Shown piece by piece: positions 10,360 to 45,280 of a stretch of 64,000 bases of DNA (positions are counted from its first letter, which is position 1; every line of letters starts with the position of its first letter). A program made the position numbers and the translations under genes. The notes beneath the pieces are model-generated. The model worked only from the letters and a program-made list of their open reading frames with translations. It was not told where the DNA came from and ran no database searches. The stretch is from Alphaproteobacteria bacterium (GTDB lineage Bacteria; Pseudomonadota; Alphaproteobacteria; UBA6615): NCBI GenBank assembly GCA_965261975.1, contig CBDHEC010000036.1:9842-73841 (forward strand). The letters run 5' to 3'.

Positions 10360-12396
<2,037 letters not shown>

Positions 12397-24833: not shown

Positions 24834-24939
24834 GTGCGTTCCCCGTTTCAAACGGCGCGCAGGCGCCGGACAGGGGACCAGAATCGCCTGTTTTGGTTAA
24901 GAAACCCTTGGTTGTGTGCAGATACCGCCGGGACGTTAC

Positions 24940-25761: not shown

Positions 25762-25834
25762 GGCGCAATCCTAGCGCGGCACCATGCATGGTCGTCTGAC
25801 CTCGATCAAACCCTGGTTCCGATATGGCGGCAGG

Positions 25835-27040: not shown

Positions 27041-27119
27041 GCATGTGCACCGCGAAAGTTTGATCGATGCGTAATTGTTACGCGATTGCCGGGTTTCGTA
27101 AAAGCTCGTGGGGTGCTGC

Positions 27120-27167
27120 TTGACCCCGGTGTTTCACACCGTCAAACTCAATTTCATGAGTATGAAT
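27120..27167 (+). promoter_or_regulatory. Putative promoter and autoregulatory boxes for a probably leaderless IclR mRNA
   Basis: TTGACC-N17-CAAACT ends 7 nt before ATG 27156; no RBS; imperfect palindromes TTTCAC-acc-GTCAAA and TTCAT-gagt-ATGAA. Confidence 0.45.
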
Positions 27168-27911
27168 GATGGCGTGAAGACAGCGGTACGCACGGTCAAC
27201 CTGTTCGAGGCATTTTCGCGTCGCAAGGGGCCGATGACCCTGACCCAGATATCGGAGGCCCTGTCGGCGCCGATCAGCAGCTGCCACGGTCTGGTCCGGA
27301 CGCTCAGCGCCAAGGGGTATCTCTACACGTCTGAACGAAACCGGGCGATTTACCCGACCAAGCGCCTGCTTGAGGTCGCCAACACGATTGCCGCCCATGA
27401 CCCGGTGCTGGAAAGCATTGTCCCGCAGCTTGAAGTGCTGCGCGACGAGACCAACGAAACCATCCTGCTCGGTCGCCGCCAGGGGGAGACGATCCTTTAT
27501 CTGGATGTGATCGAGGGCGGCCAAACGTTGCGCTATTCCGCAGGCGCGGGCGATATCAAGCCGATGCATTCGAGTGCCATCGGCAAGGCGTTTCTCGGCC
27601 GCCTGGACGATGCCGAACGCGCCGCGCTGGTGGCTCGCTTGCCCCTCGATCTGCACACGCCCAACACGATCACCGAGCGCGCGACACTGGAAGCGGATTT
27701 GGCGGAGGGAATTGCCAAGGGTTACTTCGTGACCCGTGGCGAGAATGTCGTCGATGTGATGGGGCTGGCGACCACGGCGGATGTCTATGGCGAGGCCATG
27801 GGCATTGCGGTCGCGGGGCCGCTCGTGCGGATGGAGGCGGGCGAGATCGAGCTCGCCGCACAGCTCCTGGCCGCGAAAGCGCGGCTCGAGGCTCTCGGAG
27901 ACAGTTCATGA
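27156..27911 (+). CDS. IclR family transcriptional regulator
   Basis: VKTAVRTVNLFE...LTQISEALSAPISSCHGLVRTL HTH; PMHSSAIGKA effector domain. Confidence 0.92.
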   Translation: MSMNDGVKTAVRTVNLFEAFSRRKGPMTLTQISEALSAPISSCHGLVRTLSAKGYLYTSERNRAIYPTKRLLEVANTIAAHDPVLESIVPQLEVLRDETNETILLGRRQGETILYLDVIEGGQTLRYSAGAGDIKPMHSSAIGKAFLGRLDDAERAALVARLPLDLHTPNTITERATLEADLAEGIAKGYFVTRGENVVDVMGLATTADVYGEAMGIAVAGPLVRMEAGEIELAAQLLAAKARLEALGDSS

Positions 27912-28459
27912 GCGACACGGTAATCAGACCCGACGCTGCCACACCCGATTGGGCCGATGCGCTCTATGACGTGCTGGTGCAGCAGAATATTCGCCAGGTT
28001 GCCTATGTGCCCGATGCCGGGCATTCCCGTCTGATCGAGCGGTGCGAGGACAACCCGGACATGTGTGCGACCACTCTCACCACCGAGGAAGACGGTGTGG
28101 CAATGCTGGCCGGCGCCTGGCTGGGTGGTGATCGCGGTGTGTTGCTCATGCAGTCGAGCGGCGTGGGCAACTGTGTGAACATGTTCACCCTGATCGAGAA
28201 TTGCCGGATCCCGCTTGTGGCGGTGATCACGATGCGCGGCGAGTGGGGTGAATTTAACCCGTGGCAGGCCCAGATGGGCCAGGCAACGCCCGACGTGCTC
28301 ACCCGGATGGGGGTGCAGGCACATCGGGTCGATGCCCCCGAAGAGGCCGCACCGACATTGGACGCGGCGATCCGGCAATCCTTCGACGGGTCGCTCGCCT
28401 CGGCGGTGCTGCTTTCCCAGCGTCTGATCGGCCGCAAGGCCTTCACGGAGGAGGGATGA
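27908..28459 (+). CDS. ThDP-dependent sulfopyruvate/phosphonopyruvate decarboxylase-like protein, alpha subunit (ComD-like)
   Basis: YVPDAG, TTEEDGV, LMQSSGVGN, RGEWGEFNPWQ. Confidence 0.85.
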   Translation: MSDTVIRPDAATPDWADALYDVLVQQNIRQVAYVPDAGHSRLIERCEDNPDMCATTLTTEEDGVAMLAGAWLGGDRGVLLMQSSGVGNCVNMFTLIENCRIPLVAVITMRGEWGEFNPWQAQMGQATPDVLTRMGVQAHRVDAPEEAAPTLDAAIRQSFDGSLASAVLLSQRLIGRKAFTEEG

Positions 28460-28460
28460 C

Positions 28461-29045
28461 ATGACAGGCCCTCTTCTCGACCGACGCGAGGCCGTCGCGC
28501 GGCTTCTGCAGGACCGCGGCGAACTGCTCGTGGTCTCCGGGCTCGGCTCGGCGACCTATGACTGCGCGGCAGCGGGCGACGACCCGCGCAACTTCTATCT
28601 CTGGGGCGCCATGGGTGGGACCGCCGCCCTGGCGCTCGGGTTGGCGCAGGCCCAGCCGGACCGGCCGGTCGCCGCGATAACCGGCGACGGGGACATGCTG
28701 ATGGGGCTCGGCAGCCTGGCGACGATCGGTACCGCCAAACCGGCGAACCTGTCGGTGATCGTGCTCGACAACGAGGTGTATGGCGAGACCGGCGCCCAGC
28801 CAACGGCCACGGCCGGCGGCGTGAGCCTCGTGGAGGTGGCACGCGGCTGCGGGATCGAGGCACTCGAGGATATCCGGGACATGAACGCGCTGGGTACGCT
28901 TGCAGGGCGCATGCAGCGCTGCGAGGGGCCGCTTTTCGCCAACATCAAGATCGAGGCGGGCGAGCATCCACGCGTGCTCCCCGCACGCGACGGGGCCTAT
29001 CTGCGCTCGCGGTTCCGCGAGGCGGTATTGGGCACCGGCCCGTAA
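28461..29045 (+). CDS. ThDP-dependent decarboxylase, beta subunit (ComE-like)
   Basis: NFYLWGAMG and the GDGDMLM...LDNEVYGETGAQ thiamine diphosphate motif. Confidence 0.85.
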   Translation: MTGPLLDRREAVARLLQDRGELLVVSGLGSATYDCAAAGDDPRNFYLWGAMGGTAALALGLAQAQPDRPVAAITGDGDMLMGLGSLATIGTAKPANLSVIVLDNEVYGETGAQPTATAGGVSLVEVARGCGIEALEDIRDMNALGTLAGRMQRCEGPLFANIKIEAGEHPRVLPARDGAYLRSRFREAVLGTGP

Positions 29046-29083
29046 GGCCGGGACATACCGAACAAATCCAGAGGGAGGACATC

Positions 29084-29968
29084 ATGGCTGAGAAGGTTGG
29101 AATTCTGGGACTTGGACTGATCGGCGGTATCACGGCCGAGATCCTGATGCCCGAAGGCTACGAATGTGCAGCCGTTCGCCGCCCGAGCACGGAGAGCTTT
29201 CCCGACACTGGCGGCAAGTTGTTTGATACGGCACGCGAGCTCGCCGAATGGTCCGACGTGGTGATTTCGGCGCTCCCGAGCACCGACGCCTCCCGCACCG
29301 CGCTGGAAGGCCCCGACGGCTTGTTGGCAGGTGCCCATGAAGGCCTGACCATCATCGAGATGAACACCTTCCCGGTGGGTGAGAAGGAACGTGTACGCGA
29401 CCAGGTGGCTGACACGCCGGCGAAAATCATCGATTGCCCGCTCAGCGGTACCCAGCCGATCATTCGCGCGGGCAAGGGTGTCATCATGATGAGCGGCGAC
29501 GAGGCCTTGTGTGAATCCGTGAAGCCGATGCTGGAGCTCGTTTGCCCGAAGACGTTTTATGTTGGCGAGTACGGCACGGGCATCAAGCTCAAGCTGATGA
29601 TCAACTTCATGGTCGGCGCGAATACGGTGGCCTTGGCCGAAGGCATGCTGTTCGGCGCCCAGATGGGGCTCGATCCCGAGCAGATGATCGATATCGTGGG
29701 ACCCAGTGCCGCCGGGTCGGTCGTGTTCGGCATGCGCGCGGGCATCATCAAGGACCGGTCATGGCAGCCCTGCGCGGGCCCCAGCAAGCTGCTGTGGAAG
29801 GATCTCGATATCGTCGAGGAACAGGCCGATGCGCTGGGCCTGTCCGCGCCGTTGCTGCGGATCTGCAACGACTATTACAAGAAGATCGAGAAGGCCGGGC
29901 GGCTCGAGGATGAGTGCTCGGTGGTCTACGAGATCCTCGAGAGCGAGATCAAGGCGGCTGCGGAATAG
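29084..29968 (+). CDS. NAD(P)-dependent beta-hydroxyacid dehydrogenase (3-hydroxyisobutyrate/tartronate semialdehyde reductase family)
   Basis: GLGLIG, DCPLSG, KLMINF, KDL. Confidence 0.85.
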   Translation: MAEKVGILGLGLIGGITAEILMPEGYECAAVRRPSTESFPDTGGKLFDTARELAEWSDVVISALPSTDASRTALEGPDGLLAGAHEGLTIIEMNTFPVGEKERVRDQVADTPAKIIDCPLSGTQPIIRAGKGVIMMSGDEALCESVKPMLELVCPKTFYVGEYGTGIKLKLMINFMVGANTVALAEGMLFGAQMGLDPEQMIDIVGPSAAGSVVFGMRAGIIKDRSWQPCAGPSKLLWKDLDIVEEQADALGLSAPLLRICNDYYKKIEKAGRLEDECSVVYEILESEIKAAAE

Positions 29969-29995
29969 GTGCGGGCGGTTTTGTAAGCCGCCGTT

Positions 29996-30910
29996 CTACA
30001 TATGCGAGAAGAGAACGCGACCGGCGGTCGGCATGTCGGCCGTCAGCACCTTTCCGCTCGATGATTCCGTGATGTAGAGGGTCTTGCCGTCGGGGCCGCC
30101 ATAGGCGCAATTCGTGGTCAGCGGGCCGGCGCAGGAATTGATCCGGTGGATGGGTTCGCCATTGGCCGCGAAGACCCAGATCGCGCCGAACCCCACGTGA
30201 CAAACGAGAATGCTGTCGTCCGCGCCCGCCGCCATGCCGTCGGGGCCGGTGCCGCCCGACATCCGCGCGAAACGCCCGACCTGGTCGGCGCGGCCGCGGT
30301 CGGCCAGCCGCATGCGCCAGACCGCGTTGTCGCGAGTGAGGCCGACATACAGGATTTTCTCGTCGCTGCTCAGGACCAGCCCGTTCGGGCTCGGCAGGTC
30401 CGCACAGACGAGTTCGAGGCCGCCGTCCGCATGCAGGCAGAACACCCGGCCCGAACGGTCGATCAGGTCCGACGTGCCCTGGTCGGTGAAGTACAGATCG
30501 CCGTTCGACGCGAAGGTCAGGTCGTTGGTGCCGCGAAACCGCTCATTGGTGTTGCGCACCAGATAGGGCTCGACGGTGCCGGCCTCGGGGTCGAGGCGCA
30601 TCAGGCCGTGATAATGGTCGGCGATGATGCCGTGTCCGTCCTTGTGGAAGACCAGGCCGTTCGGTTCGCCGTCATAGGTGCAGGCGAGTTCGATGTCCCC
30701 GGCGGGGGATATCCGGAACAGCCGGCCCCAGGCGACGTCGACGAGCCAAAGATTGCCGGCGCGATCGAATGAAGGGCCTTCCAGGAAACTGGGCGTGTTC
30801 GGGCGGCCGAACAGGAGCTTTGCCCATTCGGACTCACGGTCGTTGATGCCGTGGATGGCATTCACATCGGCGAACACCCGGGTTTCGATGACGGGGGGCG
30901 GAGCGAACAT
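29996..30910 (-). CDS. SMP-30/gluconolactonase/LRE family lactonase
   Basis: FLEGPSFD, EPNGL, NDL...YFTDQG, SPNGL, GPDGM, TTNCAYGG. Confidence 0.9.
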   Translation of the reverse strand: MFAPPPVIETRVFADVNAIHGINDRESEWAKLLFGRPNTPSFLEGPSFDRAGNLWLVDVAWGRLFRISPAGDIELACTYDGEPNGLVFHKDGHGIIADHYHGLMRLDPEAGTVEPYLVRNTNERFRGTNDLTFASNGDLYFTDQGTSDLIDRSGRVFCLHADGGLELVCADLPSPNGLVLSSDEKILYVGLTRDNAVWRMRLADRGRADQVGRFARMSGGTGPDGMAAGADDSILVCHVGFGAIWVFAANGEPIHRINSCAGPLTTNCAYGGPDGKTLYITESSSGKVLTADMPTAGRVLFSHM

Positions 30911-30915
30911 TCCGG

Positions 30916-31815
30916 TCAGGCCCCGTTCGTGCGGTTCAGGCGCGCCACGATCGCGTCGAACAGGTCACCGGGGTTCTGGTCGAGGACATCTTCGCCGGCT
31001 GTCTCGAGCACCTCGTCGATGCGCCGGGAGATCAGCGACTGGGCTTGGTAACGCGCCCGCGCACGCCGCACTGCGTCGGCGTCGCCATGGTCGGCGCGCC
31101 AGGCAGTGTGGGCATTGATCGCGTCGTCGAGGGCTGCGAAGCCCTGGGGGTCGTCGCGTGATGTCATGATGACGGGGGGTGTCCAGCCGTCGGCGCTTTG
31201 ATGGGCGGCCACTTGCTCGATCTCGGCGGCCATGAGGTCGGCACCCGGCAAGTCGGCCTTGTTCACCACATAGATATCCGCCATCTCGAGGATGCCGGCC
31301 TTCATCGCCTGGATCGCGTCGCCGGAATGGGGCACCAGGATGAGCACCACCGTGTCGACCAGTGTTCGGATGGTGTATTCGGCCTGCCCGACGCCCACGG
31401 TCTCGAGAATAATCTCGTCGAAGCCGTGCCCTTCCATGGCGTTGAGCAAATCGGCGGTGTTGTCCGCCAGGCCATCATGGGCGCGGCGCGAGGGAATTGA
31501 GCGGATGAAGATATCCGGGTCGTCGGCGATGGCATCCATGCGGATACGGTCGCCGAGAAGCGAGCCCTGGGACACCGGGCTCGACGGATCGACCGCCAGG
31601 ACAGCGACCTTCCGGTCGGTCCGTTTTCGAAGTTTGGTGAGCCGGGCGATGAGCGAACTCTTGCCGGCCCCCGGCGCGCCGGTGATGCCGATACGCGGCA
31701 GATCGCCTGCGGCACCCTCACTGTGTTGGGCCAGGGTCTCCGATACGTCGGCATTGGCGATGCGCGACAGGGCGCGGCTGAGGTTGCGCCGCGGATTTCG
31801 TGAGGTGCCGCTCAT
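30916..31815 (-). CDS. meaB: MeaB/ArgK family GTPase (mutase chaperone)
   Basis: GAPGAGKSS, DPSSP..GSLLGDRIRM, ETVGVGQAE, QAMKAG, NKAD. Confidence 0.9.
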   Translation of the reverse strand: MSGTSRNPRRNLSRALSRIANADVSETLAQHSEGAAGDLPRIGITGAPGAGKSSLIARLTKLRKRTDRKVAVLAVDPSSPVSQGSLLGDRIRMDAIADDPDIFIRSIPSRRAHDGLADNTADLLNAMEGHGFDEIILETVGVGQAEYTIRTLVDTVVLILVPHSGDAIQAMKAGILEMADIYVVNKADLPGADLMAAEIEQVAAHQSADGWTPPVIMTSRDDPQGFAALDDAINAHTAWRADHGDADAVRRARARYQAQSLISRRIDEVLETAGEDVLDQNPGDLFDAIVARLNRTNGA

Positions 31816-32954
31816 TTGGCCGCAGCGGCGGGCGGGGTGCCCAGGATTTCGTCGGTATGTTCGCCCAGAAGCGGCGGCAGGCCGTAGCGCGGCGGATGAT
31901 CGGTCATCTTGATCGGGTTGCCCACCACCCGCAGCGCACCATCGGGCGTTGGGATCACCGCGATCATCTCGCGTGATGCGGCCATGTCCCCGTCGAGTGC
32001 CTGGTCGAGGGTTTCGACACCGGAAACCACAAGGCCCTCATTGCCCAGTATTTCAACCCAATGCGCGGTGGCTTGTTTCTTCATGAGGTCGCCGACGGCG
32101 CCAATCACGGCGTCGCGGTTCTCCGAGCGTGCGCTCATGGTCGCGAGGTTCGGGTCGCGCGCCTGGTCGTGCCAGCCGACAACCTCGCAGAATTTCTGCC
32201 AGAACTTGTCGGTCGAGATGAACAACATCAGGTGCCCGTCACGGGTCTCGAAGACCTGGGCCGGGACCATGTAGGGATGCGCGCTGTGCGACGTTCGCTG
32301 CGGCACGATGCCATGGTTGAGGTAGCCCGACGCCAGGTAGTTGAGCTGGGCAAGCATGGTGTCGAAGAGCGACACATCGACCTGGCCGCCCTTGCCCTCG
32401 ATGATTTTTGCCAGCAACCCGATGGCACCCATCATGCCGGTGGAGTTGTCGACGGCAGAATAGCCGGCCTTGGTCGGCGCGGTGCCGGGATCGCCGGTCA
32501 GGGTCATGACGCCGGTGAGCGCCTGGACGATGTAGTCATAGGCGGGTTTGTCGGCATAGGGGCCGTCGAGACCGAACCCCGTCAATGCCAGGCATACCAG
32601 GTTCGGATTGTGCGTTTTCAGCTCGTCATGGGTCAGGCCGAAGCGCCGAATGGTGGACGGGCGCAGATTGGTAATCAGGCCCTGCGCATCGGCGGCCAAC
32701 GCGCCGAGTTGAGATTTGCCCGCCGGGGTGTTCAGGTCGAGGACGATGGATCTCTTGTTGCGGTTGAGGCTCGCGAAATAGTCGTTATAGGGCCCCGTGA
32801 ACTGCTTGGTAATGTTTCGGGCCATGTCGCCGCCGGGCGGCTCGACCTTGATCACGTCGGCACCCAGATCGCCCAGAATCATGCTGCAAAACGGTCCCGC
32901 GAGGACGTGCGCGACCTCGATGATCCGGACGCCGGCGAGGGGGCCTTCGCTCAC
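31812..32954 (-). CDS. Family III CoA transferase (CaiB/BaiF)
   Basis: AGPFCSMILGDLGADVIKVEPP, NRNKRS, PPLLGEHT. Confidence 0.93.
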   Translation of the reverse strand: MSEGPLAGVRIIEVAHVLAGPFCSMILGDLGADVIKVEPPGGDMARNITKQFTGPYNDYFASLNRNKRSIVLDLNTPAGKSQLGALAADAQGLITNLRPSTIRRFGLTHDELKTHNPNLVCLALTGFGLDGPYADKPAYDYIVQALTGVMTLTGDPGTAPTKAGYSAVDNSTGMMGAIGLLAKIIEGKGGQVDVSLFDTMLAQLNYLASGYLNHGIVPQRTSHSAHPYMVPAQVFETRDGHLMLFISTDKFWQKFCEVVGWHDQARDPNLATMSARSENRDAVIGAVGDLMKKQATAHWVEILGNEGLVVSGVETLDQALDGDMAASREMIAVIPTPDGALRVVGNPIKMTDHPPRYGLPPLLGEHTDEILGTPPAAAAK

Positions 32955-33349
32955 CCGCCGAGCTCCGCATCGAGGGCGTCGACCACATCATTGACCGCCA
33001 TTTCGGCCGTGAAGATTCCCCGGGCACCGGCATCGCGCAGTTCGTCATGGTCTTCCGCCGGGATGGTGCCACCGACAAACACCCGAATATCACCGGCATC
33101 GAGTTCGTTGAGGCAGCGCACCGTCTCCTCGACCAGTTCCTTATGGCTGCCCGACAGGATGGACAGTCCCACCGCGTCGACATCCTCGTCGACCGCGACA
33201 CGGGCGATGTAGTCGGGCGTGCGGCGCAGGCCGGTATAGATCACGTCGGCGCCGGCATCACGCAGCGCCAGGGCGATGATCTTGGCACCCACATCGTGCC
33301 CGTCGAGGCCCGGTTTCGCGATCAGAATGCGTTTTCCGTTCAGGCTCAT
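32951..33349 (-). CDS. Acyl-CoA mutase small (cobalamin-binding) subunit
   Basis: KPGLDGHDVGAK (DxHxxG), GLSILSGSH, VGGTIP. Confidence 0.93.
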   Translation of the reverse strand: MSLNGKRILIAKPGLDGHDVGAKIIALALRDAGADVIYTGLRRTPDYIARVAVDEDVDAVGLSILSGSHKELVEETVRCLNELDAGDIRVFVGGTIPAEDHDELRDAGARGIFTAEMAVNDVVDALDAELGG

Positions 33350-33358
33350 GATGCGATC

Positions 33359-35002
33359 CTACAGCCTCACCGGTTCTTCGAATTCACCCCATTGGCGCTT
33401 CAGGGTGGCCACCATTTCACCGACGGTTGCATAAGCATGGCAGCAATCGATGAGGTACGGCATCAGGTTCTTGCTGTCGTCCGCCGCAGCGGCCTCCAGC
33501 GCGGCGAGTGACGTTGCGACCGCATCATTGTCACGGCTGTCGCGCACCCGCTCGAATTTCTCGACGACACGGGCGCTGGCGCCCGGGTCGAGCTTGAAGA
33601 GCTCGGCAACACCGTCGTTCTGATCCTCGCGGCGGAAGTGATTCTGGCCGACGACGACCGTCTCGCCGCTATCGATCTTGTGTTTGCGCTCGGATGCCCG
33701 CTGCGCAATCTTCATCTGCAGCCAGCCGTCTTCGACCGCCTTGGTCACGCCGCCATAGGTCTCGATATCGTCGATGACCTTCATGATCTCGTCTTCCATC
33801 TGGTCGGTCAGCCATTCCACATAATGGCTGCCGCCCAACGGATCGACGGTGCGCGCGATGCCGGATTCATGAGCCACGATCTGCTGGGTGCGGACCGCGA
33901 TCTCCGCCGAATGCTCGGTCGGGATCTGGTAGGCCTCGTCGAAGGCGGCGGTGAAGATCGATTGGGCGCCGCCCATCACGGCCGCCATGTTCTCGATGCC
34001 GACGCGGACGACGTTGTTGTAGGGCTGGGCGCCGACCAGGGACGAACCGCCGCAAACGACGCCAAATCGAAACATAAGCGCCTTGGGATCCTGCACGCCG
34101 TAGCGATCCTGCAACAACTTGGCCCAAAGTCGCCGGCCCGCCCGGAACTTGCAGACCTCTTCGAAGAAATCCATGTGGACATAGAAGAAGAAACTGAGCC
34201 GGCGTGCGAACTTCTCGACATCGCCGCCCCGGCGGATCAATTCGTCGATATAGGCCAGGCCGTTGGCCAGGGTGTAGCCCATCTCCTCGACCGCCGTGCA
34301 GCCGGCGTCGCGCACATGCGCCCCGGCGATGCTGATAGCGTTGAAGCGCGGCGTCTGGTCGTAGGAGAAAAGAATCGTATCGGCGATAAGCCGCATGGAC
34401 GGGCGTACCGGGAAAATCCAGGTGCCGCGCGCCACATATTCCTTGAGGATGTCGTTCTGGATGGTGCCGGTGAGTTTCTCGCGGGGCACACCCTTCTTGT
34501 CGGCCACGGCGCAATACATGGCGTAGATGATCGACGCGGTGCCGTTGATTGTGAAAGAGGTCGAGATGCCGCCGAGATCAATACCATCGAAAAGAATCTC
34601 GGCCTCCGCGAGGCTCGAGAGCGAGACGCCGACCTTGCCGACTTCGGTTTTTGCGATCGGGTCGACCGGGTCGTAGCCGCACTGGGTCGGCAGGTCGAGT
34701 GCGACCGAGAGGCCGGTCTGGCCTTGATCGAGCAGGAACCGATAGCGTTCGTTTGATTCCTCCGCCGTCCCGAATCCCGAATATTGCCGGATCGTCCAGA
34801 GCCGTCCCCGGAAACCGTCGGGGAAGATGCCGCGTGTGTACGGGAATTCGCCCGGCATTCCCTGATCAGGGTTACTGACCATGTCCGGTGTCACCACCGG
34901 CGGCACTTCGATGCCCGAAGGGGTCGCGGTGGAGGGTTTGGTCGGCGGTTCGCGCCGCGCCGCGTCGGTTTCGTTTTTCCGGGAGGCAGAGTTGTCGGCC
35001 AT
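33359..35002 (-). CDS. Acyl-CoA mutase large subunit (methylmalonyl-CoA mutase family, atypical active site)
   Basis: PGEFPYTRG, RQYSGFG, GTIQNDILKEY, VDPLGGS, ATVGEM. Confidence 0.93.
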   Translation of the reverse strand: MADNSASRKNETDAARREPPTKPSTATPSGIEVPPVVTPDMVSNPDQGMPGEFPYTRGIFPDGFRGRLWTIRQYSGFGTAEESNERYRFLLDQGQTGLSVALDLPTQCGYDPVDPIAKTEVGKVGVSLSSLAEAEILFDGIDLGGISTSFTINGTASIIYAMYCAVADKKGVPREKLTGTIQNDILKEYVARGTWIFPVRPSMRLIADTILFSYDQTPRFNAISIAGAHVRDAGCTAVEEMGYTLANGLAYIDELIRRGGDVEKFARRLSFFFYVHMDFFEEVCKFRAGRRLWAKLLQDRYGVQDPKALMFRFGVVCGGSSLVGAQPYNNVVRVGIENMAAVMGGAQSIFTAAFDEAYQIPTEHSAEIAVRTQQIVAHESGIARTVDPLGGSHYVEWLTDQMEDEIMKVIDDIETYGGVTKAVEDGWLQMKIAQRASERKHKIDSGETVVVGQNHFRREDQNDGVAELFKLDPGASARVVEKFERVRDSRDNDAVATSLAALEAAAADDSKNLMPYLIDCCHAYATVGEMVATLKRQWGEFEEPVRL

Positions 35003-35006
35003 CGGG

Positions 35007-35783
35007 TCAGCCTTTCTTCGCGGGAAGCACCTTTTCGGCGGCCTCCCAGTGGTCGTCATGAACCCAGGTTTTCACGAACATGCGTGTCTCGGCGTCTTGC
35101 ATCGTGGCACGTGAATCTCCGCGCCGGTGTGCATCGCTGACGGCCTTGAACGCGCGCATGGACTGGGCCTTCTGCTTTCGGATCGGCTCGAGGAAAGCCT
35201 CGATGGTGTCGTCGATGTTTTCGGTTTCGGGCCCGATTGCGTCATACAGCCCGATATCAAGCGCGGTCGGCGCGTCGAGCATCTCGCCGGTGCTCATGAG
35301 TTTGAGCCCCCGCGCACGCCCGACCAGGTCGAGCAGGTCCGGCCCGCCGCCCCAGGCGGTGGCGAGGGCGAGACGACCCTGCACAAAGCCGATGCGCGCA
35401 TGCGCTGCCGCGACCCGGAAATCGCAGGCGACGGCGAGTTCGGCACCGCCGCCGAAGGCATTGCCGTTGAGGCCGGCGATCACGGGCACCGGGAAATCGC
35501 GGATCGCGTTGAACGCCGCCTTGGCATCGAGTGCCATTGTCTCCGCTTCCGCCTCGGTGCGAAGGCCGGCGAGTTCACGCAGGTCGCCGCCCGCGGCAAA
35601 TGTCTTTTCGCCCGCGCCGCGCAAGACCGCCGCGACGAGACTCTCATCAGCCGCCGCCGCACGAAATGTTTCGCCGATCGCGGCGATGATCGAAATTGCG
35701 AGCGCGTTGTGTTTCTCCACCCGGTCGATGGTCACGTACAGGACGCGATCACGTGTTTCGCTCAGGAGATGTGCGTCGCTCAT
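35007..35783 (-). CDS. Enoyl-CoA hydratase/isomerase family protein
   Basis: FAAGGDL, GGGAELAVACDFR crotonase motifs. Confidence 0.9.
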   Translation of the reverse strand: MSDAHLLSETRDRVLYVTIDRVEKHNALAISIIAAIGETFRAAAADESLVAAVLRGAGEKTFAAGGDLRELAGLRTEAEAETMALDAKAAFNAIRDFPVPVIAGLNGNAFGGGAELAVACDFRVAAAHARIGFVQGRLALATAWGGGPDLLDLVGRARGLKLMSTGEMLDAPTALDIGLYDAIGPETENIDDTIEAFLEPIRKQKAQSMRAFKAVSDAHRRGDSRATMQDAETRMFVKTWVHDDHWEAAEKVLPAKKG

Positions 35784-35830
35784 ACCAATTCTTTCGTCAC
35801 GGAAAACACCTTGCTGGTCGGCGAGGGCCG

Positions 35831-36868
35831 TTAGTCCTCGTCCATCTCCGCGGTGCGGTAGATGTAGTTGCCATCCATATAGGTGATGAAGAAATCATGG
35901 AACGACATCGGCTCGTAGACCGGTTCTTCGCCCGGGTTGATGCAGGTCGGGATCGGGTCGGCCACGGTTTCGTCATTGCAGTTATAGAAGAATGTCAGCG
36001 CATAGCGATGGTCGAGCGGCGGCACGACGCGGTGCGGTGTTGCGATGAAACGTCCGTTGGTCCAGCGATTGAAGAACTCGCCGGTGTTGACGACGATCGC
36101 GCCGCGCAAGGGCTCGATTTCCATCCATTTGCCCGATGGGCGCCATGACCTGCAGGTCCCGCCACGTCCATCAGGGGCAAGATATGTCATCGAGCTGTGA
36201 TCGGAATGCGGCGAGAGGGAGAACTGCCCTTCCTCGGCATCCACGGGCGGATACCAGGCGCAACGGTTGTAGTATTCCGGGTGGGAGAACTTGTCGTCGA
36301 AATAGTCTGCCGGCATCTCCAGCGCCCGGGCATAGGCCGGCAGCATCCGTGTCGCCAGGACCGCCATCGTCTCCTGATACTCGAGTAGGGTGGCTTGCGG
36401 AATTCGGGGAGTTCCTCGGGCCACTGGTTGAGGTTCCGGTGACGGATGTTGGCCTTCACCTTGGGATCGTCGGCCGTCGCGTTCGCGCATGAACGCCCAG
36501 GCCTCGTTGAGGTCCTTCTTCTCGTTCTTTGCGATTTTCGACCAGCGCAGGATCAGTGACTTGTTCGGGATGAAGCCCTGGTGGTGGAAATCCACCCGGT
36601 ACTTCATCTTTGTCTCGTCGGAGAGTTTGAACAGTTCGGCGATCTGTTCGAAGCTGCGATCGATCAATCCCTGGTCGATCCCGTGATTGATGATGCAGTA
36701 GAAACCAAGGCTTTCCTGTATGGCCCGCAGGTCGGTGGCGAACTGCTCGACGGCATCGGGGTCCCCTGACAGATAACCGCTGACATCGATGATCGGAATG
36801 CGTTCCTCAGCGATGCATTTCGCGACGTCGGGTGAAACCTGACGTTCCGATTCAGCGGCAACGGACAT
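35831..36868 (-). CDS. Isopenicillin N synthase-like 2OG-Fe(II) oxygenase, with internal compensating frameshifts
   Basis: IPIIDVS, GFYCIINHGI, HSD, VVNTGE...WTNGRF.ATPHRV...RY. The conserved NQWPEELPEFR segment lies in a different frame (ORF 36187-36459). Confidence 0.8.
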   Translation of the reverse strand: MSVAAESERQVSPDVAKCIAEERIPIIDVSGYLSGDPDAVEQFATDLRAIQESLGFYCIINHGIDQGLIDRSFEQIAELFKLSDETKMKYRVDFHHQGFIPNKSLILRWSKIAKNEKKDLNEAWAFMRERDGRRSQGEGQHPSPEPQPVARGTPRIPQATLLEYQETMAVLATRMLPAYARALEMPADYFDDKFSHPEYYNRCAWYPPVDAEEGQFSLSPHSDHSSMTYLAPDGRGGTCRSWRPSGKWMEIEPLRGAIVVNTGEFFNRWTNGRFIATPHRVVPPLDHRYALTFFYNCNDETVADPIPTCINPGEEPVYEPMSFHDFFITYMDGNYIYRTAEMDED

Positions 36869-36950
36869 TTTGGCCTCCGTGATTCTTATGTTCGCCGGCC
36901 CCGCACCGCATGTGCGGTGCAGGGCGGGCCGAACAGGTCTTTGAGCCGGA

Positions 36951-38073
36951 CTACTGGGCGGCGGCGGCGGAATCCTCGTCTTCCGGCACCAGGTCGGCGA
37001 GGTTCGGCATGACTTCCTTGGCGAACAGCGACATGTTGTCGAGCCAATCCTGGAAGGGTTCGTAAACATACTGGACCTGCAGAACGGTGCCGAAGCCTCC
37101 CGTGTCGTCGTAGAGCTTGCGCAGTTTCTCGGTGACCGTATCGGGACTGCCGACGATCCAGATGTTGTCGCAGATATATTCCGCGGTCAGATCCTCGTCC
37201 TTGATGTCCTCGTTCTCCTTGTAGAGATCGACGACGCCGAGTGATTTGAGGACGTTGTACATATAGTCGTTATAGGCCTTCGGGCCATGCCGCCGTTGAG
37301 CACATGGTCGCGTGCTTCCGCATCGGTTTTGCCGACATAGATCTCGCGCGCCACCCGCCAGTCCTTGCGGCTTGGCGTCCGGCCCGTTTCCTTGCCGCGC
37401 CCTGTTTCACCGCTTCCCAATGGGTGTTGAGGTTGGCGGCGGGCAGATAGTTGACGCTCATCGGCATCCAGCCCTCGCGTCCCGCCGTCACCAGCGATTC
37501 CGAGTATTTGTGCAGTCCGGCCACGGCGATTGGCGGATGCGGGTCCTGATAGGGCCGGATGTGATGGTAGAGCGGGATCTGCGGCATCGGTTCGGGCACC
37601 TTGAACTGCCAGAACTTGCCATTGTGTTCGAACGGGTCCTCTTCGGTCCAAAGACGCGTGGATGGCGTCGATCGCCTCGCGCATCCGCTCGCGATGCTCG
37701 CCTTCCTGATAGTCGATGTCGAAGAAGTGGAAATCGGTCGGGTGCGCCGCCCGCACCGATGCCGAAGTTGAGGCGGCCTTTCGAGAGGTGATCGAGATAC
37801 GCGATGCGCAAGTGCCACGAGACGCGGGTCGTGCATCGGCAGCAACACAACGCCGGTGCCGACCCGGATCTGCTCGGTCTGTGCGAATACGGTCGCGGCG
37901 AACAGGTCGGTCGCGGGAATGGGCTCCCACGGGATGGTGTAATGCTCGCCCATCCAGCCCTCGGTGTATCCGAGCTTGTCGGCATGGATATAGGTCTCGA
38001 TGTCGCGGTGATAGTTGCCGTTCACGTCGCCCCCGGGCGGACGCAGAGGCATGCTGAACATTCCGTATTTCAT
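36951..38073 (-). CDS. LLM-class (luciferase-like) flavin-dependent monooxygenase, frameshifted several times
   Basis: GYTEGWMGEH, GTGVVLLP, LDHLSKGRLNFGIGAG, PYQDPHPPI and IVGSPDTV are spread across the three minus-strand frames. Confidence 0.8.
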
Positions 38074-38182
38074 CGTTTCATTCTCCCTAAGGTACCGGAG
38101 CCGTGGGCGGTATTTGAGCCGCTCTCATTCGTTAACGGGGTTTATTCTAGGCGCAGGGGCTTGTCGGCTGGAGTCAATCGGG

Positions 38183-38220
38183 TTCCATTACATAGAAAAA
38201 TAATTCCCATGTATGTGAAA
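38183..38220. promoter_or_regulatory. Tandem palindromic operator-like sites in the divergent promoter region
   Basis: TTCCAT-tac-ATAGAA and TTCCCAT-gt-ATGTGAA in an AT-rich patch. Confidence 0.45.
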
Positions 38221-38277
38221 CATTGTCGGCGCGGTTGGTTTGACCCTATCGTCGCGCAGGACTTGGGGGAGAGGACC

Positions 38278-39066
38278 ATGCTGATTGGCAAGAAGGGCGA
38301 GGCGAAAACCGCTATCGAGACGGCCGACGCGAGCTCGATCACGGTGCGCGGCAAGGATTTGTGCAACGAGGTGATGGGCCATGCCTCGATCGCCGAATTC
38401 TTCTTTTTCCATCTCACCGGTCGCGAGCCGAGTGCCGATCAGGCCTTCTTCATGGATGTGCTGGTGGTCGCGCTGGCCGAACACGGGCTGACGCCGAGCG
38501 TCCAGGCTGCGCGCATGACCCTGGCGGCGGCCCCCGAAGCGCTGCAGGGCGCGGTGGCCGCGGGACTGCTCGGGTGTCGGATCGGTCATCCTCGGCAGTG
38601 CGGATGTGTGCGGGGACATGCTCGACGATGCCGCAAACGCGCATCGAAGGAGGCGAGTCACGCAGAGGCCGCGGCACTGGCGATCGCGCAGGGAATATCA
38701 AGGACGGCCGGAAAATTCATCCCCGGTTTCGGGCACCCCATTCACCACCCCGTCGATCCGCGGGCCGTCCGAATCCTCGAGCTGGCCGATGAACGCGGGG
38801 TCTCGGGACGCCATGTCCATGCGTTGCGCGCGTTTCCCGACGCCGTTGCCGAAGTCTGGGGCAAGCCGCTGCCGATGAACCTGCAGGGACCCATGGCGGC
38901 CGTCTTGCTCGATCTGGACTATCCCGAAGGCGGCGATCCGCGGCATTCCCGATCCTGGCCCGCACCGATGGGACTGATCGGTCACCTGAATGAAGAGACC
39001 GAACGCCCGATCGGATTCCTGCTGGCCCATCACGGTGAAGAAGCCATTAGCTATGACGGGGACTAG
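38278..39066 (+). CDS. Citryl-CoA lyase / citrate synthase-like protein, with internal compensating frameshifts
   Basis: AEHGLTPS, QGAVAAGLLG, PGFGHPIH...DPRA. GSVILGSA and RGIPILAR lie in alternate frames. Confidence 0.8.
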   Translation: MLIGKKGEAKTAIETADASSITVRGKDLCNEVMGHASIAEFFFFHLTGREPSADQAFFMDVLVVALAEHGLTPSVQAARMTLAAAPEALQGAVAAGLLGCRIGHPRQCGCVRGHARRCRKRASKEASHAEAAALAIAQGISRTAGKFIPGFGHPIHHPVDPRAVRILELADERGVSGRHVHALRAFPDAVAEVWGKPLPMNLQGPMAAVLLDLDYPEGGDPRHSRSWPAPMGLIGHLNEETERPIGFLLAHHGEEAISYDGD

Positions 39067-39071
39067 ACTAG

Positions 39072-40403
39072 ATGTCGGCTGCCGAGCTCTTTGATCCCGA
39101 GGCCGAAACCCGGGAATTCGCGGACCAGAAACAGAAAGACGAGCCGGTTTACCGCAGGCAGATTGAGTATCTGTTCGCGCGTTCCGAATTCTATCGCGAG
39201 AAGTTTCGCACGGCTGGTTTCAAGACCCCGGAATCGGTCGGTGGACTGGATGATCTGCGCCACCTGCCGTTCACGGTCAAAGATGAATTGCGCGCCAGCC
39301 AGGCCGACCATCTCCCGCTGGGCAACCAGCTGGCAGCACCGCTCGAAGATGTGGTGCGGATCTATTCAACCAGCGGCACATCCGGTGCGCCGCTCTATAT
39401 TCCGGTCACCCTGGGCGACCTCAAGCGATGGATTCACACGTCCAACCGCAGTTATTTCGCCGCCGGAATTCGGCCTCACCACCGGGTCGTCACCACCTAC
39501 AATTCCGGGCCGTTTGCGGCGGGGGCGGTGCATGAATCCATGATCGCGCTGGGTGTATGCATGGTACCGGTGGGCAGCGGCAATACCGACCGGCTGCTGA
39601 CCGCCCTGGAACGCTTCCAGGTCCAGGCGATGCCCGGGACGCCGTCGTATTTTCTGTATATCGCCGAGGCCGCGCGGGCCCGCGGCATCGATCCGGCGGC
39701 CTGCGGGCTGGAGACGCTTGTGGCCGGTGGTGAGCCGGGGGGCGGTGAGCCCGAAGTCCGTGCTCAGATCGAGGAGGCGTTTAACGCGAAAGTACATGAG
39801 GTCCTGGGGCTCGGCGAGCTGTCGATTTCCATGTTCGGGGAGGGGCCGGAACAGGACGGCATGAACTTCCTCGCCCGGGACTATATCCATATGGAGCTGA
39901 TCGACCCGGACACCGAGGAACCACTGCCGTTCGAGGACGGGGTCCGGGGCGAGCCGGTCTACACCCATCTTCAACAGGAAGCTGCGCCGCTGCTGCGCTA
40001 TCGTTCCCGCGACCATGTGACCGTGCGCATGGGCCCCGTCGCCAGTGGGCGCACCGGACCGCGCATTCGCTGTATCGGCCGGACCGACGACATGCTCATC
40101 GTGCGGGGGGTCAACGTCTTTCCCAGTGCGATCCGGGAGGTGGTGAACCTGTTTCGCCCGGACGTGAGCGGAATCATGCTGGTGCGCCCGACCCAGGCAG
40201 GCGTGCAGCAATCACCGCCACTGCCGGTTCATGTCGAGGCGGCCGAGGGGGCCGAGCCCGGACCCGGGTTGGCGGAAGCGATCGAGAAGGAGATCCGCTC
40301 GAAGCTGGTGGTCACGACCAAGGTCGAGATCGTGACGTTCGGGAGTCTGCCGCGGACCGACTACAAGACGAAGCTCGTGGACTATTCGGACGCCGCCGAC
40401 TAA
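39072..40403 (+). CDS. Phenylacetate-CoA ligase (PaaK)-like CoA ligase
   Basis: LPFTVKDELR, STSGTSG, GTPSY, GGEPG, PLLRYR, GRTDDMLIVRGVNVFPS. Confidence 0.9.
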   Translation: MSAAELFDPEAETREFADQKQKDEPVYRRQIEYLFARSEFYREKFRTAGFKTPESVGGLDDLRHLPFTVKDELRASQADHLPLGNQLAAPLEDVVRIYSTSGTSGAPLYIPVTLGDLKRWIHTSNRSYFAAGIRPHHRVVTTYNSGPFAAGAVHESMIALGVCMVPVGSGNTDRLLTALERFQVQAMPGTPSYFLYIAEAARARGIDPAACGLETLVAGGEPGGGEPEVRAQIEEAFNAKVHEVLGLGELSISMFGEGPEQDGMNFLARDYIHMELIDPDTEEPLPFEDGVRGEPVYTHLQQEAAPLLRYRSRDHVTVRMGPVASGRTGPRIRCIGRTDDMLIVRGVNVFPSAIREVVNLFRPDVSGIMLVRPTQAGVQQSPPLPVHVEAAEGAEPGPGLAEAIEKEIRSKLVVTTKVEIVTFGSLPRTDYKTKLVDYSDAAD

Positions 40404-40406
40404 GCC

Positions 40407-41537
40407 TCAGAACAGGAAGTCGGTCGCCGACAGGTCTGCCATGGCGACGCCCACCAGCGTGATCTCGTCGTTGTTCCCGTAATCGATGGTGGCGTTCCCG
40501 CCGACGTCACTGGTGCTTGCGAGAAGATCCCCGAAGTTGGCGAACCCGAGTGCTGAGACGTCGAGCGTGTCTTCGCCGGACGTGAAATCCTCGACCCAGT
40601 CGTCGCCGCCGTTGACGGAGAACAGGAACAGGTCGTCGCCGTCGCCGCCCCAGAGATGGTCTTCCGCGTTGTCGCCGTCACCGCCGTTGAGCGTGTCTGC
40701 ACCGTCGTCGCCGAAGAGAAAGTCCTGATGCGCGCCGCCGTTGAGTGTGTCGTCGCCATCACCGCCCTGAAGAACGTCGATGCCATTCCCGCCGGAAAGG
40801 TCGTCACTGCCGTCGTCGCCTGACAGCCCGTCATTGCCGTCTTCCCCGCGAAGCGCATCGTCGTCCTCGCCGCCGTGGAGCTTGTCATTGCCGTCGCCGC
40901 CCTCGAGAAGGTCGTTGCCGGTCCATCCGAACAGCCGATCGTCGCCATCCTCGCCGTAGAGGGAATCGTCGCCGGCGTTGCCGAAGAGCCAGTCGTTGCC
41001 GTTGCCGCCGTTGAGCTGGTCGTCGCCGTCACCGCCATGCAGTTCATCCTCACCGTCGCTGCCCAGCAGTCGGTCATCCCCGTCGAGACCCCACAGCGTG
41101 TCGTTGCCGTTGCCCCCGTGCAGCCTGTCGTCGCCCTGGCCGCCATGGAGCCAGTCGTCTCCGTTCTCGCCATGGAGTTCGTCGTCACCAAGGCCGCCGA
41201 GGAGTGTGTCGTTGCCGGCGTCGCCGGCCTGGTCTCCGTACAGCCAGTCATCCCCGGGACCGCCATCGAGCCAGTCATCGCCGTCGTTGCCGTACAGCCG
41301 GTCGTCACCGCGACCGCCGAACAGGTGATCGTCTCCGTCTTCGCCGTAGAGTCGGTCGTTCCCGTTGCCGCCCCGCACATAGTCCTTGCCGCCGCCGGCG
41401 CGAATCTCGTCATCGCCGTCATAGCCGAAGATGATCTCGTTCTCATACGTGCCGTCGATCAGGTCGCCGTCGGCGGTGCCGTAGACAAAACCGTAATCGA
41501 ACGTGTTTCGGTTGTCGTTCTTGTCATGGTCGGACAT
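40407..41537 (-). CDS. RTX/hemolysin-type calcium-binding repeat protein
   Basis: About 30 near-contiguous GGxGxDxLx nonapeptides; C-terminal D.VEDF...ITLVGV...DFLF type I secretion-like tail; no signal peptide. Confidence 0.9.
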   Translation of the reverse strand: MSDHDKNDNRNTFDYGFVYGTADGDLIDGTYENEIIFGYDGDDEIRAGGGKDYVRGGNGNDRLYGEDGDDHLFGGRGDDRLYGNDGDDWLDGGPGDDWLYGDQAGDAGNDTLLGGLGDDELHGENGDDWLHGGQGDDRLHGGNGNDTLWGLDGDDRLLGSDGEDELHGGDGDDQLNGGNGNDWLFGNAGDDSLYGEDGDDRLFGWTGNDLLEGGDGNDKLHGGEDDDALRGEDGNDGLSGDDGSDDLSGGNGIDVLQGGDGDDTLNGGAHQDFLFGDDGADTLNGGDGDNAEDHLWGGDGDDLFLFSVNGGDDWVEDFTSGEDTLDVSALGFANFGDLLASTSDVGGNATIDYGNNDEITLVGVAMADLSATDFLF

Positions 41538-43403: not shown

Positions 43404-44086
43404 CAGTCTTGCAGGCGCGTGACGGCGAACGGATTGAACCGTGTCTTGCGGTCGTAGTGATCGATGCCTTCCGACCGTTTCAACCAGCCGATCACCGCAT
43501 AGGTGAGGGGCGTGGCCAGGACCTCGTAAGCGATCTTGGCGAGGGCCTGCAGCACGATCGTACCCACCAGCACTTTCATGGGCAGGACGCCCCAGAACGC
43601 GACGAAGACGAAGACGACGGAATCGAGCCCCTGGCCCACCACGGTCGATCCGATGGTGCGCAGCCACAGCATGCGACCCGCGGTGATCACCTTCAGGCGG
43701 GCCAGTATGTAGGAGTTGGCAAACTCGCCGACCAGGTAGGCCAGGAACGACGCGGTGAGGATTCGCGGGGTCGCACCGAGGATCGTATCGTAGGCGGCCT
43801 GACCTTCCCAGAAACCCGCGGCCGGCAGGATTCCAACCAGGGCAAAAGTCAGGACCGCGAACAGATTGGCGCCGAACCCGACCCAAACAACCAACCGGGC
43901 CTTGGCGAAGCCGTAAACTTCAGTCAGAACATCGCCGATGATGTAGCTGATCGGGAAAATCACGATGGCGCCTGTGAGAACATACCCATTTACGTCGATC
44001 AGCTTGACGGCCGTGATGTTCGAAACCATCAAACAGGTCACGAACAGGACGGTGATAATGAGGAAACGCGTGGTTAATCCGGGCAT
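43403..44086 (-). CDS. yhhQ: Queuosine precursor transporter (YhhQ/VUT family)
   Basis: [40 protein letters not shown]; divergent from queA. Confidence 0.9.
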
Positions 44087-44185
44087 CGAAGTGTCGCAGG
44101 TTTCGGGCTGGTACGTTTGGGTCAGGCTAATGGTAGCATGGTCCACGCGCTGTCAATCCGCTGCATCGCAATCAAGGCTTCGCGC

Positions 44186-45214: not shown

Positions 45215-45280
45215 TATGTGGGGGCGGATGGTGATTTGTGGGATGATCGAGCCGCGGACAGGCGTGAAGGGCCGAAGCGA

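Follow-up and report, generated by a model that had tools for sequence, protein, structure and literature searches.

A split B12-dependent acyl-CoA mutase with a conserved Tyr-to-Ala change in a recurrent cassette of a probable alphaproteobacterial catabolic island

Gene content and state of the sequence

We analysed a stretch of 64,000 nucleotides from an alphaproteobacterial contig (CBDHEC010000036.1, assembly GCA_965261975.1), referred to below as the window. It contains a putative catabolic island of about 13.3 kb (27108-40403), most of which lies in the piece 29996-40403. The island encodes a two-subunit (split) B12-dependent acyl-CoA mutase next to a crotonase-fold protein, a family III CoA-transferase and a MeaB-type chaperone. 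The mutase belongs to a distinct, uncharacterised clade with a fixed Tyr-to-Ala change. The crotonase, split mutase, CoA-transferase and MeaB form a compact, recurrent mobile cassette that is found across Proteobacteria, including on plasmids.

Protein families were called with Pfam and NCBIfam profile scans, and 28 open reading frames (ORFs) between 23.4 and 46.4 kb were given to Pfam. The initial annotation had listed ten genes, all of which are present by these profiles (Table 1). The gene arrangement is also as it had been described: the citryl-CoA-lyase-like and ligase genes on the plus strand diverge from an eight-gene minus-strand set, in which the six genes from lactonase to crotonase abut or overlap with a spacing of -4 to +9 nt. 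The hydantoinase, molybdoenzyme and acyl-CoA dehydrogenase reported as missing have no match among the 28 scanned ORFs. Four co-inherited genes on the left side (27108-29968) had been overlooked. They encode an IclR-family regulator, the alpha and beta subunits of a thiamine pyrophosphate (TPP) enzyme and a dehydrogenase similar to 3-hydroxyisobutyrate dehydrogenase (HIBADH).

Table 1 Features of the island, with positions in the window
Feature	Position	Strand	Evidence
IclR-family regulator	27108..27911	+	Pfam HTH_IclR + IclR_C
TPP enzyme alpha subunit, N-terminal TPP domain	27908..28459	+	PF02776
TPP enzyme beta subunit	28461..29045	+	PF02775
Beta-hydroxyacid dehydrogenase, HIBADH/tartronate-semialdehyde-reductase family	29084..29968	+	PF03446 + PF14833
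SMP-30/gluconolactonase-like hydrolase (SGL; lactonase), last gene of the long operon	29996..30910	-	PF08450, 140.7 bits
MeaB-type G-protein chaperone	30916..31815	-	PF03308; TIGR00750, 252 bits (cut-off 240.75); P-loop GAPGAGKS
Family III CoA-transferase	31812..32954	-	PF02515, 364.6 bits
Mutase small subunit, B12-binding	32951..33349	-	PF02310, 77.5 bits; TIGR00640; DGHDVG at residue 16
Mutase large subunit	33359..35002	-	PF01642, 649.7 bits, profile positions 2-512 of 512
Crotonase-fold protein	35007..35783	-	PF00378
2-Oxoglutarate (2OG)/Fe(II) oxygenase, isopenicillin-N-synthase (IPNS) type	35831..36868	-	PF14226 (DIOX_N) + PF03171
Luciferase-like monooxygenase (LLM), frame broken in the assembly	36954..38073	-	Orthologue alignment
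Dual-operator remnant (TTC-N8-GAA twice) in the divergent promoter, spacing disturbed in the window	38182..38221		
Citryl-CoA-lyase-like protein, short citrate-synthase fold	38278..39066	+	NF004868; PDB 6hxp
PaaK/HCL-like acyl-CoA ligase	39072..40403	+	PF00501 + PF14535

Some gene boundaries were revised. The ORF of the mutase large subunit runs from 33359 to 35059, and the second ATG at 35002 is the likely start because it gives the 547 aa of the database homologues. The lyase-like gene begins at 38278 and not at 37804, and a 343-aa oxygenase orthologue aligns to 36868-35834.

The LLM was assigned to the right family in the initial annotation, but the ORF taken as its gene (37270-38073) is a mere fragment. 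LLM orthologues have 371-378 aa and give a single unbroken match in 17 of 17 related loci, while the window shifts frame at least four times in 36954-38073 (frames -2, -1, -2, -1 and -3 from 38091 to 36954). We compared the region 35800-39100 with four public sequencing runs. Two of them, which yielded the same tables and possibly represent a single data set, contain contigs with no more than 2-4 differences to the window per 303-635 nt. Extra letters of the window without a counterpart in these near-identical contigs lie in the LLM segment (37279, 37391, 37660, 37743 and 37812) and beyond it (38089, 38117, 38165, 38168, 38188 and 38208). Since the near-identical contigs do not have these letters, the frame breaks are probably indel errors of the assembly between about 36.1 and 39.0 kb. 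The same indels probably also corrupt stretches of the lyase translation and upset the spacing of the promoter and operator; the oxygenase translation is possibly affected as well. True decay of the LLM into a pseudogene is unlikely, as the frame-breaking letters are missing from the near-identical environmental contigs. Searches with the LLM, oxygenase and lyase were later run with clean orthologues.

Relative to these contigs and to the closest relative, 36100-39000 forms a run of extra letters of 1-2 nt; the rest of the region has few. The runs containing the stretch are estuary, ballast-water and seawater metagenomes. None listed among them is an RNA data set, which has no bearing on expression.

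Residues and phylogeny of the mutase

The mutase falls within the B12 acyl-CoA mutase superfamily, with a PF01642 domain, a DxHxxG B12-binding domain and an adjoining MeaB gene. The host genome (a 3.03-Mb assembly in 59 contigs) encodes a canonical fused methylmalonyl-CoA mutase (MCM) on another contig. This sets the island mutase apart from the housekeeping enzyme. The best structure match of the large subunit is HcmA of 2-hydroxyisobutyryl-CoA mutase (HCM; PDB 4r3u, E 6e-143), followed by human and bacterial MCM.

We take Tyr89, Gln197, Arg207, Tyr243 and His244 (P. shermanii numbering) to be the substrate contacts of MCM. The large subunit keeps the equivalents of Tyr89, Gln197, Arg207 and His244 and has Ala at the position of Tyr243, a residue that presumably limits the space beside the substrate in MCM. 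In the alignments, the Tyr of the RQY motif and the Arg of VARG are kept as in MCM, where HcmA has Ile and Gln. The position of the HcmA Asp is Ala in the window, as in MCM. The Tyr of GYH, present in all aligned MCM and HCM sequences, is Ala in the window. The initial annotation had inferred a substituted succinate or malonate, activated as a CoA ester; the kept carboxylate-binding Tyr and Arg fit this class.

The resulting six-residue pattern, YAQRAH, occurs in 49 of 49 clade loci (the window and 48 others). The 62 other split mutases have YAQRYH (56/62) or FAQQYH (6/62), and none has Ala243. YAQRYH is also found in E. coli ScpA, in the genome's own MCM and in four putative ethylmalonyl-CoA mutases (ECMs), and IDQQYH in one HCM-like locus (L139). 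No mention of Y243A was found in a full-text literature search.

A quick maximum-likelihood tree of 64 rows places 21 proteobacterial rows on one branch (SH-aLRT 100), which joins actinobacterial rows at SH-aLRT 89. HCM enters in the next group (SH-aLRT 95) and is the nearest named group to the clade, while fused MCM and the putative ECMs lie apart. The phylogeny that had been suggested as a check separates the clade from fused MCM and the putative ECMs, in a tree without IaaH and pivalyl-CoA mutase (PCM) sequences. The FAQQYH loci form a separate branch, and the mutase of a Mycobacterium sp. ELW1 plasmid (L172) groups with L139.

The actinobacterial sister clade comprises loci of Mycobacterium and Nocardia (L008, L009, L011, L012, L015, L018 and L019) in which the genes stand in the order large subunit, small subunit, LLM of another subfamily and CoA-transferase. 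Pfam scans of three of them found a Mce-type transporter, a P450, FadD, split acyl-CoA dehydrogenases and a carboxyltransferase around these genes, a context that resembles lipid or steroid side-chain degradation.

The window mutase does not fit MCM, HCM or ICM. Four of the five MCM residues are kept, with Tyr243 changed to Ala in every clade member, and the MCM equivalog NF006944 scores 567.4 bits against a cut-off of 876. The specificity residues of HCM (Ile, Asp and Gln) are Tyr, Ala and Arg in the window. In isobutyryl-CoA mutase (ICM), Phe replaces Tyr89 and Gln replaces Arg207; the window keeps Tyr and Arg. On the tree, the window mutase is far from four fused mutases of about 665-715 aa taken as ECM, an identity that is itself putative. 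All clade members are presently annotated as methylmalonyl-CoA mutase, a label to be read with caution.

That label is in line with an alternative in which the split mutase is a second MCM and the cassette an ordinary succinate/methylmalonate/propionate shunt like E. coli scpABC. The four kept contact residues speak for this, as do the MCM structures, which score nearly as well as HCM, and the E. coli operon, which holds the same four functional types. In scpA(sbm)-argK-scpB-scpC, a mutase, a MeaB-type GTPase, a crotonase-fold enzyme and a CoA-transferase are likewise encoded in one compact operon. That system converts succinate to propionate in a closed cycle, and the CoA ester of the product re-activates the next substrate. 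Unlike the cassette, this operon encodes a fused mutase with Tyr243, a transferase of a different family and a crotonase (ScpB) with only 20% identity to that of the island, and it has neither an IclR regulator with operator nor a transporter. A second MCM is opposed by the canonical MCM already in the genome, the separation from fused MCM on the tree, the sub-threshold NF006944 score, Ala243 in all clade members and in none of the other split mutases, and the cassette's dedicated IclR, operator, transporters and plasmid location. We consider this alternative unlikely.

Distribution of the cassette, regulation and the TauD exchange

The order to which the window belongs consists of one family of Alphaproteobacteria, known from samples of estuaries and seawater and represented by 46 genomes. 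Because of their kinship, counts among these genomes are not independent and describe a pattern rather than a statistic. Outside the family, we examined 13 genome or plasmid loci and 73 metagenome loci, with counts for the latter taken over the assessable loci only. Only six species-level genomes outside the family have at least 69% identity to the mutase; more than 500 metagenome stretches encode relatives of it.

The small subunit gene lies beside the large subunit gene in 13/13 genome or plasmid loci and 62/62 metagenome loci. Of the other cassette genes, the crotonase is present in 11/13 and 56/61, the CoA-transferase in 10/13 and 35/43, and MeaB in 8/13 and 33/41. An IclR gene adjoins the mutase in 9/13 (by tblastn) and 28/43, and the window IclR is 45-54% identical to the regulators adjoining the cassette in other lineages. 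On annotated plasmids of Marinobacter, Sulfitobacter, Paraburkholderia and Diaphorobacter, the cassette is flanked by TRAP, TAXI or TctC transporters; one plasmid cassette has an adenosyltransferase gene and sits between insertion sequence (IS) elements. Across the loci outside the family, the flanking transporters are of TRAP, TAXI, TctC, LivK or MFS type, and other flanking genes vary widely. The DctP binding protein beside the Paraburkholderia cassette best matches PDB 4mco (E 1e-53), a structure that may be malonate-bound; this match is not used as evidence. The TAXI binding proteins gave structure matches without ligand names.

Two loci carry further mutases. On the Diaphorobacter plasmid, a second and different mutase large subunit is encoded 10 kb before the cassette, on its upstream side (L134:1-2184), together with a separate MeaB and an AMP-binding ligase. 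A metagenome locus (L233:4295-8114) has a B12-binding gene and two more PF01642 large-subunit genes just upstream of the cassette and an MTTB-family gene downstream. This locus looks like a hot spot of acyl-CoA mutase paralogues, as does one class-level genome (G161) with ten mutase-like matches.

The crotonase keeps the first catalytic Glu (GGGAEL) and has Gln in place of the second in 8 of 8 aligned clade members. Enoyl-CoA hydratase proper has two catalytic glutamates, and the crotonase therefore does not qualify as one. The identity of 20% to E. coli ScpB is likewise too low to establish relatedness to ScpB/YgfG, although the protein may still have an ScpB-like function. The CoA-transferase is nearest to dicarboxylate transferases, and its PDB matches include SUGCT, YfdE and formyl-CoA transferase.

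Within the family, a mutase orthologue is present in 25 of the 46 genomes, and 23 loci show a single gene order as far as their contigs extend. IclR, TPP-alpha, TPP-beta and HIBADH stand on the left. They are followed on the opposite strand by the lactonase (where present), MeaB, transferase, small subunit, large subunit, crotonase, oxygenase and LLM, and then by the divergent lyase and ligase genes. Matches were found for TPP-beta in 22 of these loci, the oxygenase in 20, the LLM in 17, the lyase in 16, the ligase in 15 and the lactonase in 10, eight of the last with at least 75% identity. The missing end of one locus was recovered on another contig. Across 8 genera, this order is kept even where protein identity is as low as 57-65%.

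The strict operator pattern consists of TTC-N8-GAA twice, with 5-8 nt between the copies. It occurs once each in 13/24 family loci, without exception in the promoter between the divergent LLM and lyase genes, in 3/13 non-family loci at the IclR/crotonase promoter, and in 15/80 metagenome loci, 14 of them at equivalent places. None was found in 60 control loci (979 kb) or in 11 actinobacterial loci, and the only match in the 3.03-Mb genome of the window lies in an unrelated place. At 38182-38221 the window itself departs from the strict pattern; here the letters at 38188 and 38208 are absent from the near-identical contigs. Through the candidate operator, both the long operon and the operon of lyase and ligase are linked to the type of IclR regulator that accompanies the cassette, and the island is probably controlled by IclR. 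No Rfam family, including the cobalamin riboswitch, was detected between 20 and 46 kb.

In four of the fetched loci without a mutase, the gene after the 2OG oxygenase encodes a 283-aa TauD-family dioxygenase, which reaches 219-228 bits on PF02668 in the three loci scanned. On its other side, TauD borders on the crotonase or the lactonase gene, and neither the mutase subunits nor MeaB are present. Two of the four loci retain both crotonase and transferase, one has the crotonase only, and one has neither. The crotonase is also found in two more family genomes, which have neither the mutase cassette nor TauD. TauD orthologues are present in 6/46 family genomes, five at coordinates within the cluster and one elsewhere, and no genome has both the mutase and TauD (0/46). 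Each of two genera contains genomes of both types. The mutase cassette and TauD are thus a mutually exclusive swap in the family genomes. Known exchanges of a cobalamin enzyme for an oxygen- or metal-dependent one between close relatives are MetH/MetE and NrdJ/NrdAB. The exchange seen here differs from such pairs in being a cassette swap within one operon, and the equivalence of the two steps is putative. As a comparison for the TauD variant, glutarate is hydroxylated by a 2OG hydroxylase and then oxidised to the 2-oxoacid in CsiD-LhgO.

One family locus (L285, G014:C8) holds a decayed island, with a ligase match interrupted by three TAG stops and a partial LLM. It has no oxygenase, crotonase, mutase or TauD.

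The lineage-specific genes were compared with curated models and solved structures. The LLM is putatively of Baeyer-Villiger type; its best solved relative is 3,6-diketocamphane monooxygenase (E 9e-13). The lyase-like protein exceeds the cut-off of NF004868 (193), both in the window copy (242.3 bits) and in a clean orthologue (309.2); this is a subfamily model that does not imply a substrate. The ligase matches PaaK (4r1l, 2e-58) and 2-hydroxyisobutyryl-CoA synthetase (HCL; 6hdw, 1e-53) and stays below the PaaK equivalog TIGR02155 (235.3 bits vs 646.3). Both TPP subunits resemble sulfopyruvate decarboxylase below cut-off (TIGR03845, 109.9 bits vs 147.95 for alpha; TIGR03846, 127.6 bits vs 221.5 for beta) and probably form a 2-oxoacid decarboxylase. 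The HIBADH-like dehydrogenase is below the cut-off of all NCBIfam equivalogs.

The initial annotation had envisaged a pathway built around the mutase and had suggested gene co-occurrence as a check. A pathway of this form is not supported. The ligase adjoins the mutase clade only within the one family (0/13 genome or plasmid loci and 0/24 assessable metagenome loci outside it). The TPP genes, HIBADH, the lactonase and this type of LLM are equally absent beside the cassette in other lineages (0/13, 0/24). The IPNS-type oxygenase is rare there, with 1/13 (Diaphorobacter, 44% identical) and 3/24, and so is the lyase-like gene, with 0/13 and 3/24, once directly after MeaB. Moreover, the island also exists without the mutase, with TauD in the slot.

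The absence of the ligase, TPP, HIBADH, lactonase and LLM genes in other lineages and the existence of the island without the mutase speak for an alternative in which the island consists of juxtaposed modules (ligase and lyase; LLM and oxygenase; TPP enzyme and dehydrogenase) that share no pathway with the cassette, with a synteny that is inherited rather than functional. It is in line with this that TPP-beta homologues (E <= 1e-25) occur in 39 of 201 sampled genomes of the class. At eight non-family loci, the alpha-subunit gene adjoins in 8/8 and a mutase match lies within about 3.5 kb in 0/8. Lyase homologues elsewhere adjoin a family III CoA-transferase and no mutase. However, the cassette is embedded in one operon between the oxygenase and the lactonase, its operator type lies in the LLM/lyase divergent promoter, and the TPP operon encodes the IclR orthologue. 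The gene order is also kept to the low identities given above, and the oxygenase and the lyase-like gene do recur beside the cassette in unrelated lineages. Mere juxtaposition appears rather unlikely to us.

Two unrelated cassette loci from metagenomes (L216 and L260) have another accessory set in common, with a lyase-like gene, a second family III CoA-transferase, a short-chain dehydrogenase/reductase (SDR), a Zn-dependent dehydrogenase and a LivK-type binding protein.

The TauD and TPP similarities would also be compatible with organosulfonate degradation, in which a sulfonate and not a carboxylate is held by the Arg and Tyr of the mutase or attacked by TauD. TauD reaches 242.7 bits on the taurine dioxygenase equivalog NF007104 (cut-off 313), the TPP subunits are nearest to sulfopyruvate decarboxylase, and the dehydrogenase is weakly similar to sulfolactaldehyde reductase. 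The metagenomes with the stretch come from estuary, ballast water and seawater, and Ala243 might give a bulkier anion room. All of the sulfonate-related matches are, however, below curated cut-offs, Pfam scans of the island revealed no sulfite exporter, sulfite dehydrogenase or Xsc, and the transporters beside the cassette elsewhere are of carboxylate types. No acyl-CoA mutase is known to act on a sulfonated substrate. We regard this possibility as very unlikely.

Proposed working of the island and its significance

We propose that the island combines a swappable mutase cassette with lineage-specific genes for the catabolism of an organic acid, most likely a substituted succinate, by CoA transfer, rearrangement and decarboxylation, a proposal that we hold with as much doubt as confidence. 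The first layer would be the cassette of crotonase, split B12 mutase, family III CoA-transferase and MeaB, accompanied elsewhere by IclR, the operator and a carboxylate transporter. The second, lineage-specific layer would comprise the LLM, the IPNS-type 2OG oxygenase, the lyase-like protein and ligase, the TPP decarboxylase, the dehydrogenase and sometimes the lactonase.

An imported substituted succinate, or less likely a substituted malonate, would receive CoA by transfer. In the rearrangement that follows, the mutase would shift the thioester carbon onto the adjacent carbon atom, with the free carboxylate held by Arg and Tyr and the extra substituent accommodated in the room left by the change of Tyr243 to Ala. 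The one-glutamate crotonase would decarboxylate or epimerise the malonyl-type product, and CoA would be handed on to the next substrate molecule. Accessory enzymes could feed or drain the rearrangement step. Ring opening and a cleavage after the rearrangement, as envisaged in the initial annotation, would be speculative additions to this scheme. Within the family, the B12-dependent rearrangement would be replaceable by an oxygen-dependent TauD step in the same operon slot. We infer this cycle by analogy with E. coli ScpA-ArgK-ScpB-ScpC and with IaaL/IaaGH; the direction of the pathway, the crotonase reaction and the roles of the accessory enzymes are likewise putative. Since Arg and Tyr are kept, the substrate presumably has a free carboxylate, in addition to an extra substituent.

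A close precedent for the first steps is anaerobic indoleacetate degradation in Aromatoleum. As described in PMC8360864, the family III transferase IaaL acts on a substituted succinate, and the two-subunit mutase IaaGH produces a substituted malonyl-CoA, followed by loss of CO2. The likeness that the initial annotation had drawn is apparent in the window, where the mutase adjoins a family III CoA-transferase as IaaGH adjoins IaaL in Aromatoleum, and a CoA ligase is part of the Iaa cluster as well (PMC8360864). In contrast to the island, the Iaa pathway is anaerobic, has hydantoinase-like and molybdenum enzymes, and decarboxylates with an acyl-CoA dehydrogenase (IaaF), of which the island has none. 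No described pathway matching the whole set was found in the full texts searched, supplements aside, in agreement with the earlier suggestion that the pathway is uncharacterised.

The HcmAB/MeaH/HCL system resembles the island in its split mutase, in HcmA as best solved relative and in the match of the ligase to HCL. It differs in the Ile, Asp and Gln at the positions of Tyr, Ala and Arg in the window clade. The substrate of the window enzyme should therefore carry a carboxylate, where the HCM substrate has a neutral methyl group.

ECM and the hexylmalonyl-CoA mutases MatB/ActD rearrange substituted malonyl- or succinyl-CoA with a free carboxylate, according to PMC5719088. The putative ECMs are, however, a distant fused clade that keeps Tyr243, and ECM has a carboxylase/reductase and an epimerase as partners, both absent from the island. 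MatB/ActD, which act in making the pentylsuccinyl warhead, also provide the model for a biosynthetic reading, in which the cluster would supply a branched extender unit or a small natural product. The biosynthesis of actinonin and matlystatin involves ECM-like split mutases that belong to the HCM subclass (PMC5719088), and ligases, oxygenases and LLMs are common tailoring enzymes. Against this, Pfam scans of the island found no polyketide synthase (PKS), nonribosomal peptide synthetase (NRPS), carboxylase/reductase or amide synthetase. IclR and uptake transporters adjoin the cassette elsewhere, and the cassette is exchanged for a dioxygenase while the rest of the island is kept. We consider a biosynthetic role extremely improbable.

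Several findings weigh against the proposed working of the island. The accessory genes are commoner in the family than the mutase (ligase orthologues in 32/46 genomes and TPP-beta in 36/46, vs the mutase in 25/46) and therefore do not depend on it; the island persists in family genomes from which the mutase is missing. In an unrelated metagenome locus (L232), the cassette is directly followed, after MeaB, by a 61%-identical TauD, and the two can therefore act together. Of 43 metagenome loci that could be assessed, 8 do not have the transferase. In front of the family's IclR-TPP operon, no operator was recognised. The crotonase, with its low identity to ScpB, could equally be an isomerase, an epimerase or a hydrolase. 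The four putative ECMs, an enzyme type that handles substituted succinyl-CoA, keep Tyr243, and Ala243 is therefore no general mark of bulkier substrates.

A further-reaching version of the proposal, which we consider possible but doubtful, is that the clade has a new mutase specificity for succinyl- or malonyl-CoA with an extra substituent at a tertiary or quaternary carbon, and that the widespread mobile cassette serves as a hub in the aerobic degradation of branched dicarboxylates, which marine bacteria exchange for TauD according to cobalamin supply. Example substrates would be 2,2-dimethylsuccinyl-CoA, citramal-1-yl-CoA and carboxymethyl-succinyl-CoA.

Other candidates were dropped. A decarboxylase alone would suffice for dimethylmalonate. 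Itaconyl-CoA is an inactivator of B12 mutases, which disfavours itaconate, and citramalyl-CoA with CoA on the C4 carboxyl has no abstractable hydrogen.

The known acyl-CoA mutase specificities are few (MCM, ICM/IcmF, ECM, HCM/RCM, PCM, IaaGH and the MatB type), and each new one opened a pathway for compounds beyond the reach of beta-oxidation. If the further-reaching version is true, the clade adds a specificity to this short list. It is a tractable starting point, with a one-residue signature, its own regulator and operator, a common occurrence and cultured hosts with plasmid copies. The swap of mutase and TauD in syntenic operons would be a natural experiment on the replacement of a cobalamin-dependent step, and bears on B12 limitation in the sea.

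The surroundings of the island were also surveyed. To the left, the region 23385-27040 flanks the IclR gene and encodes a pyridine-nucleotide disulphide oxidoreductase, a transporter of the formate/nitrite family (24940-25761) and an FAD-dependent monooxygenase of aromatic type (25835-27040), the last of which is present in only 7 of 23 related loci. To the right, a 376-aa ORF with eight matches to RTX nonapeptide repeats (PF00353) lies directly after the ligase gene (40407-41537, minus strand), followed by LpxR (42399-43886) and by QueA and QueG (44117-46447). The composition profile of the window reaches an AT skew of up to 0.21 at 10001-12000 and stays below 0.1 in absolute value elsewhere.

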